IMG/VR virus record: IMGVR_UViG_3300042507_004106
Source: a virus
Lineage: Duplodnaviria > Caudoviricetes
Length of the DNA stretch: 64,000 nucleotides
Reading direction: 5' to 3' (one strand)
The position numbers and the translations under genes are program-made. Under the pieces are notes generated by a model that was not told the origin of the DNA, searched no databases, and saw only the letters and a list, made by a program, of their open reading frames with translations. Below are positions 42,690-48,538 of the stretch, one piece after another (position 1 is the first letter of the stretch; the number at the start of each line of letters is the position of its first letter).

Positions 42690-42851
42690 TCAGCGTTCGA
42701 GTTGCGCCAGACTGCTAGGGGCGATGTGAGAGGGAGAACCACAGGAGCGGTAGAAGTCTACCATGCGGTCTGCCTCCTCTTTACTGGTGAACCACTGCGA
42801 CCGCCACTCACAAGCGTTGTAGGGGGTCTGGTAACGGACTTCGAAGCGCAT
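42690..42851 (-). CDS. small early hypothetical protein
   Basis: Hand-found 53 aa MRFEVRYQTPYNACEWRSQWFTSKEEADRMVDFYRSCGSPSHIA; TAGAAT box upstream. Confidence 0.7.
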   Translation of the reverse strand: MRFEVRYQTPYNACEWRSQWFTSKEEADRMVDFYRSCGSPSHIAPSSLAQLER

Positions 42852-44263: not shown

Positions 44264-45157
44264 TTATGCGACCTGAAACCGTCCGCTGTTGAAATTATGA
44301 TAAGCGAACACCTCACGATTCACCAGTTTGAACATACCAAACTCATTGGTCATCACATAACCTTCGGCATCAATACGGTTGCCATTGATGTATGCTGCAG
44401 GTCCGTCATTGCGGCAGATAAACAGGCAGTCATCTTTGATGCTCTTTACCAATGCCCACAAACGAATCAGGTTAGCGTCACAATCGAAATCTTCTGCGAC
44501 GATCTGATCACCCGAACGGATGCAAGCGTTGATCTGCTGTTTGATCTTTGCTGCTTCCTTCTCACTCACGAACTGAGCAGTAGTAGACATTTGACGGGCA
44601 AAATCTACAACCTCTTTTACATCAGCGAACGACTCTTGATTGTGCAGAATGTAAGCATCAGGTTTGATGAACTTCACCGTTTCAGTATCATTCCAGACGG
44701 CACGATCAGGCATTGCGACTGCATCACGAAGGTCGCTCTCAGCATAATAGCAAGTGTGAGGAGCGATGATAATCTCTTGAGAAACTACCTCACCAAACTT
44801 GTAAGTGATCGTATTGGGGCAATACTCATCACTACCGCCAAAACCAATAAAATCACCTTGAATGATAGCATTTGCGCGAGGCAGATAATCAAAGCAAGAA
44901 TGCAGAATACGCGCAACTTCACCCTGATAGAATGCATCAATCTCTTCATGATTGTGTGCAATACGAATCTTTTTCTTGTTAAAGACTGCCTTGGTTCCTA
45001 CAAAGAATTCACCACAGGCAGGGTCGATGCCCCATACAATGGCGGGAGCACCGTCGATCTTAACGGACAGGGAACCAGGATTCACGAACCAATCCAGAAC
45101 GGACAGGTCGCCCGTGAGGATGGTATCTTCGGGGTGTTCGAGGTGGGTGTTCTTCAT
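44264..45157 (-). CDS. conserved cyanophage protein with covalent nucleotidyltransferase (ligase-like) motifs
   Basis: 297 aa from MKNTHLEHPED; SVKIDGAP (KxDG), IQGDF, EGYV, FKLVN. Confidence 0.65.
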   Translation of the reverse strand: MKNTHLEHPEDTILTGDLSVLDWFVNPGSLSVKIDGAPAIVWGIDPACGEFFVGTKAVFNKKKIRIAHNHEEIDAFYQGEVARILHSCFDYLPRANAIIQGDFIGFGGSDEYCPNTITYKFGEVVSQEIIIAPHTCYYAESDLRDAVAMPDRAVWNDTETVKFIKPDAYILHNQESFADVKEVVDFARQMSTTAQFVSEKEAAKIKQQINACIRSGDQIVAEDFDCDANLIRLWALVKSIKDDCLFICRNDGPAAYINGNRIDAEGYVMTNEFGMFKLVNREVFAYHNFNSGRFQVA

Positions 45158-45199
45158 GCTCTTAAGATACCAGGGATTCAGGGGCAGCACAAGCGGTAG

Positions 45200-45223
45200 G
45201 GTGCCACCTTACGAACTGGCACA
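45200..45223. promoter_or_regulatory. 24-bp palindromic box shared by divergent -10 elements
   Basis: GGTGCCACCT-TACG-AACTGGCACA; 30 nt from minus-strand TATCTT (45164-45169) and 30 nt from plus-strand TATACT (45254-45259). Confidence 0.75.
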
Positions 45224-45348
45224 GGGTGACCCTCTACGGGGTCTGTGGCGTCTTATACTAAGGTCACAAGCGAAGGAGGGGCGGGGTAGCCCTGAAGACG
45301 AAAAAGGTCGCCACTGGGGCAGCTTTGAAATAGTAAGAAAGAAAGTAT

Positions 45349-45373
45349 AAAAAAAGGGAGGCAATCGCCCCCC
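45349..45373 (-). terminator. intrinsic terminator
   Basis: Minus strand GGGGGGC-GATT-GCCTCCC followed by a T7 run, just after the 45380 stop. Confidence 0.8.
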
Positions 45374-45379
45374 GATTCT

Positions 45380-45727
45380 TTATGCGAACATGAACCCATC
45401 TTGGAATTCGTATTCATTGTAGACAGGAGAAGTTCCTGCCTGCCCGATGAACTTGTGGACGAACCAATTGAAGTTGCGTTGAAACACACATTCGCCCTTG
45501 ATTCCATGCTCTTGAAGAATAGCATTCAGGCGCGATTTGGTGGTCACAGACTGATAACCACCGTCAAAGATTTGCACGAAGTCATCACCAATGGTGGCGA
45601 TGTGATTGCCGTGCAGGAACACTTTAGACTCTTGAGTTTCAGGGTCAAAGGTAACCTCAGTGTTGCCAGACTTCCAGTTGATGGAGTCACGAATGGCGGC
45701 GTTCATCTGCTGTTCGATCTTACGCAT
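45380..45727 (-). CDS. conserved cyanophage hypothetical protein
   Basis: 115 aa from MRKIEQQMNAAI; VFLHGNHIA, QSVTTKSRLNAIL; promoter TTGCAA-17-CATACT upstream. Confidence 0.75.
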   Translation of the reverse strand: MRKIEQQMNAAIRDSINWKSGNTEVTFDPETQESKVFLHGNHIATIGDDFVQIFDGGYQSVTTKSRLNAILQEHGIKGECVFQRNFNWFVHKFIGQAGTSPVYNEYEFQDGFMFA

Positions 45728-47680: not shown

Positions 47681-48049
47681 ATGTTTAGACTAGATTTTAT
47701 AATGAGATCTCTACGAGAATTAAATCCACTTCTAGAAGGATATTGTGCGACTTATGATGGTAAGGTAATATCTAGAAAAAATAAAGTACTTAAGCAATTC
47801 AGAAGGAACAAACAGTCTAGGTGTCCCTATTTAAGTATCAGTGTGTGGGATAAGACCTCTGGTTTTGCAAGACAATTCTTTGTACATCGACTTGTAGCGT
47901 ATCAATATTGTGATTTAAATCTTGAAGATATAACAGGTCTTGTGGTTAATCATATCGATGGTAACCCTCATAATAACCATGCAAAAAACTTAGAGTGGGT
48001 TACGCAAAAAGAAAACGTACTTAAGTATCACAGTAACGTTATAACATAA
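47681..48049 (+). CDS. HNH homing-type endonuclease (NUMOD4/HNH_3-like)
   Basis: FFVHRLVAY..VVNHIDGNPHNNHAKNLEWVTQKENV; the only clear plus-strand gene in the window. Confidence 0.85.
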   Translation: MFRLDFIMRSLRELNPLLEGYCATYDGKVISRKNKVLKQFRRNKQSRCPYLSISVWDKTSGFARQFFVHRLVAYQYCDLNLEDITGLVVNHIDGNPHNNHAKNLEWVTQKENVLKYHSNVIT

Positions 48050-48107
48050 TTGCATGAGGTCTGTGTGAATTTTTGTGTCGGTCTGGGGATATTTGCGGGG
48101 GTGGGGC

Positions 48108-48136
48108 TTGACGAACTGCGAGTCTTATGCTACGCT
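48108..48136 (+). promoter_or_regulatory. plus-strand sigma70-type promoter TTGACG-17-TACGCT (extended -10)
   Basis: -35 at 48108-48113, 17-nt spacer ending in TGC, -10 at 48131-48136; no ORF downstream. Confidence 0.6.
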
Positions 48137-48149
48137 CGCTTAGCTCACA

Positions 48150-48259
48150 AGACCTGGAGGGGTTTATAAGGTACTGGAGGCATTTATAAGCATTTAGAGC
48201 ACTTAGACCTGGAGGGGTTTATAAGGTACTGGAGGCATTTATAAGCATTTAGAGCACTT
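48150..48259. repeat. perfect 55-bp tandem duplication with internal CTGGAGGnnTTTATAAG subrepeats
   Basis: AGACCTGGAGGGGTTTATAAGGTACTGGAGGCATTTATAAGCATTTAGAGCACTT x2 (48150-48204, 48205-48259). Confidence 0.9.
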
Positions 48260-48325
48260 AATTCAAATAATACAAGGATATAACACTAACATTATACAAC
48301 CAAACAAATCACACAAATATATTTT

Positions 48326-48538
48326 TTAATACATTTTTAATTGATTTTGTTGTTGAACAGTATCACAATCATTCCAATGTCTAACTACTCCAGCAATGAT
48401 AAAACAGTTGGTAATCAGATAGGTTGCGAAGATAATAGTACGAATGATTGCGATTCTATCAGACTCTTTATCACACTTGGATGCTTTCTCACCTAATGAC
48501 TTTGCCCACCATCTCCACAGTGTTTTTTTCTTTTTCAT
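48326..48538 (-). CDS. small membrane protein
   Basis: 70 aa; WRWWAKSLGEKA..D, then hydrophobic IRTIIFATYLITNCFIIAGVVRHW. Confidence 0.7.
   Translation of the reverse strand: MKKKKTLWRWWAKSLGEKASKCDKESDRIAIIRTIIFATYLITNCFIIAGVVRHWNDCDTVQQQNQLKMY

Follow-up and report, generated by a model that had tools for sequence, protein, structure and literature searches.

A family of candidate small RNA genes on probable shuffling promoter/terminator cassettes of lake cyanomyoviruses

To our knowledge, few small RNAs encoded by phages are known, and very few of them come from cyanophages. Work from the Kreuzer laboratory on phage T4 reportedly established oriF and oriG as R-loop origins that lie at MotA-dependent middle promoters; we know of no MotA middle-mode system in T4-like cyanophages and of no replication origin that has been located in them. 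The non-coding RNAs that have been described in cyanophages include the CfrI antisense RNA of S-PM2 and the wcaG, manA, glnA, PhotoRC-II, and abiF motifs (PMC9964418). A further type of element, the PeSL (promoter-early stem-loop) cassette, has been described in T4-type phages (Arbiol et al. 2010, PMC2839356; Comeau et al. 2014, PMC4122927), and the searched text of the second of these papers contains no mention of cyanophages.

The DNA stretch analyzed here (the window; 64,000 nucleotides) is from a T4-like freshwater cyanomyovirus: the region from 43 to 50 kb resembles Synechococcus and Prochlorococcus myoviruses, with the freshwater phage S-SRM01 as the top match at about 70% identity, and nearly all of the long ORFs of the window are carried by the minus strand. 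Two minus-strand early genes, encoding proteins of the phrog_455 (297 amino acids; 44264-45157) and phrog_554 (115 amino acids; 45380-45727) families, are separated by a gap of 222 nt. A first-pass annotation had proposed that this gap holds a divergent promoter with one common palindrome and a short non-coding RNA, either a small RNA (sRNA) or an R-loop primer, on the plus strand. The phrog_455 gene would be driven by the minus-side promoter, and the phrog_554 gene is convergent with the RNA gene. Comparison with related phages indicates that the locus belongs to a real family, not described before, of predicted transcription units that contain no ORF and are read in the plus sense in lake cyanomyoviruses.

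Divergent promoters around a common palindrome

The palindromic box (ggtgccaccttacgaactggcaca, GTGCCA-N10-TGGCAC) occupies positions 45200-45223, with arms at 45201-45206 (GTGCCA) and 45217-45222 (TGGCAC), and is common to both divergent promoters. The coordinates given in the first-pass annotation were right on both sides: exactly 30 nt (45170-45199) separate the box from the minus-strand -10 element TATCTT (45164-45169), and another 30 nt (45224-45253) separate it from the plus-strand -10 element TATACT (45254-45259). The proposal of a single palindrome serving two promoters also stood, as in most relatives the plus-strand unit shares the box with a divergent early-gene promoter. On the minus side, a -35 element, TTGTGC (45187-45192), precedes the -10 with a 17-nt spacer and is TTGCGA in many relatives, and the -10 itself is kept at positions -12 to -7 from the ATG. 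The phrog_455 start codon, which has no Shine-Dalgarno (SD) sequence, lies 7 nt past the -10, a spacing that is kept in most of 80 related loci, and the phrog_455 mRNA is thus probably leaderless.

These 80 IMG/VR loci (L002-L081), which encode a phrog_455 protein at 78 to 89% identity, formed the comparison set for the box; most of them carry it, with the consensus TGTGNCAG-N8-CTGNCACA, at a constant distance from the TTGCGA -35 and from the -10 at -12 to -7. Within the window, the box sequence AAGGTGGCAC is found at 45201, 45790, 46307, and 46842 in a single orientation, and on alignment every copy has the same layout, in which the box is followed by a -35 and then by a -10. Judged as a PeSL element, the box thus recurs ahead of promoters with variable cargo, as expected, but its arms do not co-vary by eye as those of a hairpin would. 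At position 4, the relatives carry A or C in the left arm and G or T in the right, A.G being the commonest combination, and informal inspection by eye found no compensatory change at this position among them, which favours a putative protein site, such as the dimeric-factor site envisaged in the first-pass annotation, over a hairpin.

CRP/NtcA-type sites read TGTGA-N6-TCACA or GTA-N8-TAC and are centred near -41.5 or -61.5. The box does not fit an activator site of that type: its arms, GTGNCAG and CTGNCAC, lie 8 nt apart (GTG-N16-CAC), and its centre falls at about -54.5 relative to both predicted starts. In two contigs (L212:6872-7099 and L258:2233-2450), two members of the RNA family point towards each other and are not separated by a GC terminator; the gap holds two overlapping palindromic boxes, so the box may also stop or block transcription.

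The RNA family appears to have its own promoter on the RNA-sense strand. A TAnnnT hexamer stands at the same position in 53/53 copies examined, with T1, A2, and T6 invariant and positions 3 to 5 free, so that TATACT, TATAAT, TATGAT, TACAAT, TAGAAT, TATCTT, and others occur; read on the opposite strand, the first position of the hexamer is not always T. The -35 position (45231-45237) is poor in the window copy (CTCTAC, with a 16-nt spacer), and many relatives have TTGnnn 16 to 17 nt upstream of the -10. Distant members that are without a box have consensus promoters or come near the consensus; they include L254 and L242, in which TTGACA is followed after 17 to 18 nt by TATAAT, facing in the RNA sense, and the copy in the cultured phage DSL-LC03, which has a TTGACG-16-TAGAAT promoter on the RNA-sense strand. 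The intervening stretch of roughly 30 nt, from the -10 to the box, is free to vary across the family.

Occurrence and setting of the unit

The family is well populated. The 75-nt core (45259-45333) is represented by 111 distinct variants, scoring 29 to 99 bits, in IMG/VR cyanomyovirus contigs, with up to four copies per contig, and the family extends to two cultured isolates. Membership was enlarged from 13 to 52 and then to 111 variants by means of two IMG/VR pattern scans, an nhmmer HMM, and a covariance model (R1) that was built on the MAFFT alignment A3. In the 53-sequence seed alignment, the mean column identity of the core is 74%, and conservation peaks beside the plus-strand -10 and falls off towards the hairpin. 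Because the core, the TAnnnT hexamer, and the spacing of about 30 nt are found together again in more than 100 related loci, the arrangement of box, -10, and RNA is beyond chance. In some contigs, two to four copies lie within a few kilobases of each other, in both orientations. The phages that carry the family are those of lakes and reservoirs: in whole-record searches of isolates, DSL-LC03 had one copy and S-SRM01 two weak ones, all in unannotated intergenic DNA on the strand opposite to the flanking genes, and S-CRM01, S-CREM1, and S-PM2 had none. Against isolate phages, blastn recovered DSL-LC03 alone, and weakly, and the S-SRM01 copies needed the covariance model. An exact 22-base pattern, which covers canonical-type copies only, had no match in 185,579 prokaryote genomes.

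The order of parts within the unit is always the same, namely, terminator hairpin, A-rich linker, core, TAnnnT, some 30 variable nucleotides, and box. Its position varies: in some relatives the element precedes the phrog_455 gene, in others it lies several hundred bases beyond it, and the upstream genes differ. Some relatives that have the gene pair of the window are without the element, the terminator being followed by 16 nt and then by the box, and others carry the element elsewhere. The first ORFs flanking 109 copies (174 ORFs) fall into 66 clusters, the commonest being a phrog_554-like one next to the terminator (19) and a phrog_455-like one next to the promoter (11), a diversity that speaks against action in cis on one particular gene. 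This behaviour would fit a shuffled cassette, like the PeSL cassettes of other T4-type phages.

The GC-rich hairpin that bounds the unit (45356-45373) is strong when read on the minus strand; read on the plus strand, it has an A.C mismatch in the stem and is followed by the tail GATTCTTTAT (45374-45383). The hairpin had been described as bidirectional-looking; it is indeed present, but the terminator scan calls it on the minus strand only, where it has a T7 tail. In nearly all copies, the hairpin stands 25 to 50 nt past the core, and the A-tract before it and the U-rich stretch after it often pair into an extended stem. In the RNA sense, the 9 nt after the GC stem contain on average 3.98 T residues, which is twice background, whereas the 9 nt before it contain 6.6 A residues; this imbalance suggests that the hairpin is built mainly for the gene strand and that it is usable, less well, as a terminator for the RNA.

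Two groups of members depart from this pattern. A diverged subfamily (L020:1089-1214, L043:1015-1140, L151:6016-6141, and L182:7580-7705) has a 1-nt insertion and a TATCTT -10 and terminates in a long, perfect hairpin rich in A and U (UCUCAAUAAGG...CCUUAUUGAGA), directly followed by a palindromic box. In L254:4174-4240, L242:2827-2870, and L211 (after 207-281), the plain linker gives way to short tandem repeats (GAGTTATGGCATT, three to four times) or to a run of about 55 nt of the ATAAAATA type.

A second ORF-less plus-strand unit lies at about 48100-48330 of the window and comprises a TTGACG-17-TACGCT promoter, two 55-bp repeats, and a tail rich in A and T. Dozens of related loci have kept this unit, and an HNH endonuclease gene (phrog_59/959; 47681-48049, plus strand), the sole clear plus-strand protein gene in this stretch, lies just upstream of it. 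The first-pass annotation had likened the start of the RNA to that of a plus transcript at 48140. The likeness of the 5' ends is not random, as the 18-nt motif TCACAAG-N4-GGAGGGG occurs again, exactly, at 48145, with 0.01 occurrences expected by chance; it does not extend to the RNA as a whole, since the RNA model finds no match there. In the related loci that have kept the 48.1-kb unit, the motif is the repeat unit.

Structure and coding potential of the predicted RNA

The predicted RNA, of about 110 nt, would run from 45266 to 45378 on the plus strand, its start being placed 7 nt after the -10 and its end at the hairpin. It would open with a purine-rich single-stranded segment, ACAAGCGAAGGA (45266-45277), leading into an SD-like GGAGG that lies partly inside the 5-bp hairpin P2 (45278-45293), in which the arms GGGGC (45278-45282) and GCCCU (45289-45293) enclose the loop GGGGUA. 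P2 is the best-supported structure of the family: pairing reaches 99% over 111 sequences, and three of the pairs show compensatory changes, the innermost being CG in 61 sequences, AU in 31, UA in 8, and UG in 8, and the two others having 7 double changes each. Its covariation score is 0.251, compared with 0.100 in shuffles, and none of 500 shuffles reaches it; controls with slid partners score 0.071 at most, with just 37 to 57% of cells paired. The A4 alignment was fitted to the structure of the model, which favours P2; the picture is the same in the MAFFT alignment A3, and RNAalifold recovers P2 unaided. The first-pass annotation had called for a check of covariation in cyanophage genomes; the core recurs and P2 covaries.

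The closing G.U pair of P2 is formed in 110/110 sequences when these are read on the plus strand and in 8/110 when they are read on the minus strand, and standard pairs overall amount to 96.7% on plus versus 82.2% on minus. The covariation and this wobble-pair asymmetry together support the plus strand as the functional strand of the element; P2 could form in displaced single-stranded DNA too.

Downstream of P2, the RNA is less constrained. A weak hairpin, P3 (45297-45312), in which CGA (45299-45301) would pair with TCG (45308-45310), is 92% paired, one of its pairs having 23/110 unpaired cells, and no double change was found in either of the two registers tried. A conserved CAC is followed by a variable segment of 9 nt, TGGGGCAGC (45315-45323), which is G-rich, C-rich, or mixed in relatives, and then by the A-rich linker (45324-45355). 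Among near-identical members, the variable segment alternates between a G-run (GGGGCAG) and a C-run (CCCCCUG) in the A4 columns and is able to pair with either arm of P2; a consistent partner for it was found neither in the element nor in the spacer nor in the terminator.

The GGC/GCC three-way junction that had been envisaged for the transcript is not conserved, P2 alone being well supported, and RNAalifold consensus structures of 52 and 113 sequences likewise yield only P2. The multibranch fold of the window copy is not kept family-wide, nor, as judged from the columns by eye, are the long hairpin of members with a G-rich segment and a helix between the 5' arm and a C-rich segment. A de novo helix scan over all column pairs was swamped by low-complexity C/A runs. 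A hammerhead core (CUGAUGA...GAAA) was also rejected, the position equivalent to the invariant A6 being variable.

The statement that the plus transcript is without an ORF held good: 45266-45380 contains no ATG or GTG, and its lone TTG opens a frame of two codons. Across the family, there is no conserved reading frame. The Rfam search called for earlier returned no family; the whole window has no match to Rfam 15 at gathering score, and the element matches no family even at E values of up to 10, the best local scores being 13.4 and 9.4 bits against cutoffs of 50 and 44. A crude duplex scan of 90 start regions in the window gave no significant phage-internal target, as 7/60 shuffles did equally well, and a search for 16-nt complements gave one site with three mismatches, which was not significant, in an ORF of 53 amino acids (42690-42851, minus strand). 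The 5' end of the RNA can pair with codons 9 to 15 of this ORF (9 bp and 5 bp around a 4-nt mismatch), a degree of complementarity that was not significant against the shuffle control. A G/A-rich seed is unusual among sRNAs that mask ribosome-binding sites and counts against an sRNA.

Proposed role and comparison with known systems

We suggest that the plus strand at 45254-45378 holds a free-standing gene whose product is a non-coding RNA of about 110 nt. A host RNA polymerase of the sigma-70 type would start near 45266 from the -10 TATACT, with the upstream palindromic box making up for the weak -35 and serving also the divergent promoter of the neighbouring early gene; as the box is common to the promoter of an early gene, the RNA would be made early, together with the small early genes. 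The transcript would consist of a purine-rich 5' arm with the SD-like GGAGG, the 5-bp hairpin, the weak second hairpin, the variable segment, and the A-rich linker, and it would stop at the GC hairpin, which doubles as the terminator of the convergent upstream gene. Because its sequence and hairpin persist in changing gene neighbourhoods, the likeliest mode of action of the RNA is in trans, whether as a regulator, a decoy, or a partner of a protein, and the unit of promoter, RNA, and terminator would move by the same shuffling as the cassettes of small early ORFs. What the sequences show is the conservation, the promoter signature, the covariation, the strand, the lack of an ORF, and the changing context; that the RNA is transcribed, and early, where it begins and ends, and that it works in trans are inferred. 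We consider it reasonably probable that the element is such an early, independently transcribed phage sRNA on a shuffling promoter/terminator cassette, a reading whose weak points are the poor -35 (CTCTAC) and the mismatched terminator of the window copy and the presence of a single well-supported hairpin.

The first-pass annotation had left the choice between an sRNA and an R-loop primer undecided; a conserved ORF-less plus-strand unit with its own -10 was recovered, and both readings fit it. As an R-loop primer or origin module, the plus transcript would stay hybridized to its template, beside an A/T-rich tract that unwinds, and prime leading-strand synthesis, as in T4 oriF and oriG. The idea stays alive because the transcript is purine rich (73% on the transcript strand here, against 48% for the whole window, with a family mean of 61%) and has an A-rich tract after it: G clusters at the 5' end are followed by an A-rich tract of 32 nt, which is short and runs into the terminator. 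It is also favoured by the unit at about 48.1 kb, which opens with the identical motif and has repeats and an AT-rich tail, and by the short tandem repeats or long A/T tracts that follow some members (L254, L242, and L211). Against it, the compensated changes within the GGGG run preserve the hairpin and not the sequence, as expected of a nucleic acid that folds more than of a site in duplex DNA or of a plain hybrid; moreover, most copies stop at a terminator 25 to 50 nt past the core, some contigs hold two to four copies within a few kilobases in both orientations, and the promoter is of the ordinary sigma-70 type. We regard a primer as unlikely, and we offer only tentatively, with low confidence, a broader proposal in which the RNA and the 48.1-kb unit, which have ACAAG-N4-GGAGGGG in common, are both replication-priming or ribosome-directed RNAs on mobile promoter/terminator cassettes. 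In its replication-priming version, they may be R-loop primers and would then mark the origins at which T4-like cyanophages start replication, and if the RNA does prime replication, it would locate these origins; in its ribosome-directed version, they may be SD-mimic decoys that engage the 16S anti-SD sequence or a phage RNA-binding protein early in infection.

Three further explanations were considered. The transcript might be a by-product of a symmetric promoter cassette, in which the box recruits polymerase both ways and a short divergent transcript is merely terminated, the DNA being conserved because the promoter/stem-loop cassette is a PeSL-like recombination module. Such a view would accommodate the many minus-strand promoters of the window that the box precedes without any RNA gene, the dispensability of the element, which is missing in relatives of equal gene order, and the changes in cassette position among close relatives; we think it improbable, given that 111 variants preserve the 75-nt core, in contrast to the variable 30 nt that separate the box from the -10, that the hairpin covaries, and that members without a box retain the core behind consensus promoters. 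An element of the minus strand, in the form of a read-through 3' untranslated region, a leader, or an attenuator with an anti-SD-like CCUCCUU, would account for a terminator that is strongest on that strand, for a P3 pair that is slightly better there (109 versus 106), and for the outer A.C positions of P3, which are G.U on the minus strand. It would leave the closing pair of P2 formed in so few minus-strand readings, with consensus TTGACA/TATAAT promoters pointing the opposite way and conservation greatest beside the plus-strand -10 and decaying towards the hairpin, and it would have to sit past a strong terminator and before the next promoter without an end of its own, all of which makes it very unlikely. 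Least credible of all is a tiny protein gene, a frame of 12 codons (e.g., MTKKVVTGAALK) downstream of the SD-like GGAGG, with the hairpin bringing the two close together. An ATG does stand right after P2 in 36/109 copies, and 29 copies have a closed frame of 12 codons; the window copy, however, has AAG in place of this ATG, 22/109 copies have no closed frame, dozens of members carry a mid-element 1-nt indel that shifts the frame, and G-runs swap with C-runs within the supposed codons. The small-ORF reading was rejected on the frameless copies, the indels, and the swaps.

If the element is an early sRNA gene, T4-type shuffling promoter/stem-loop cassettes can carry RNA genes besides small ORFs, and a widespread palindromic promoter box would be linked to divergent transcription. 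The known cyanophage non-coding RNAs are, like this one, phage-borne, ORF-less, and present in T4-like cyanophages; unlike them, it has no fixed gene as an antisense partner or as the gene of which it would be the 5' leader. With T4 oriF and oriG it shares a promoter that reads into an ORF-less A/T-rich tract and a purine-rich transcript, and it differs from them in its ordinary -35/-10 promoter, in the terminator that most copies have, and in its conserved, covarying hairpin. Its 3' end resembles the bidirectional intrinsic terminators between convergent genes, with an A-tract, a GC hairpin, and a T-rich tract placed between a minus-strand gene and the plus-strand RNA gene, but it is asymmetric, the minus-strand tail having seven to eight T residues and the RNA-sense tail about 4 in 9, and in the window the RNA-sense stem carries an A.C mismatch. 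The PeSL cassettes come close in general architecture: an early promoter of the sigma-70 type is preceded, at a fixed distance, by a stem-loop or palindrome, many copies of this motif occur within a hyperplastic region of small early genes, and the cargo between motifs differs among close relatives, which is consistent with modular shuffling. In contrast to PeSL elements, the palindrome here is 22 to 24 bp long, is without compensation at arm position 4, and resembles a protein site more than the stem of a terminator, and the cargo would be a non-coding RNA gene on the opposite strand rather than an ORF.
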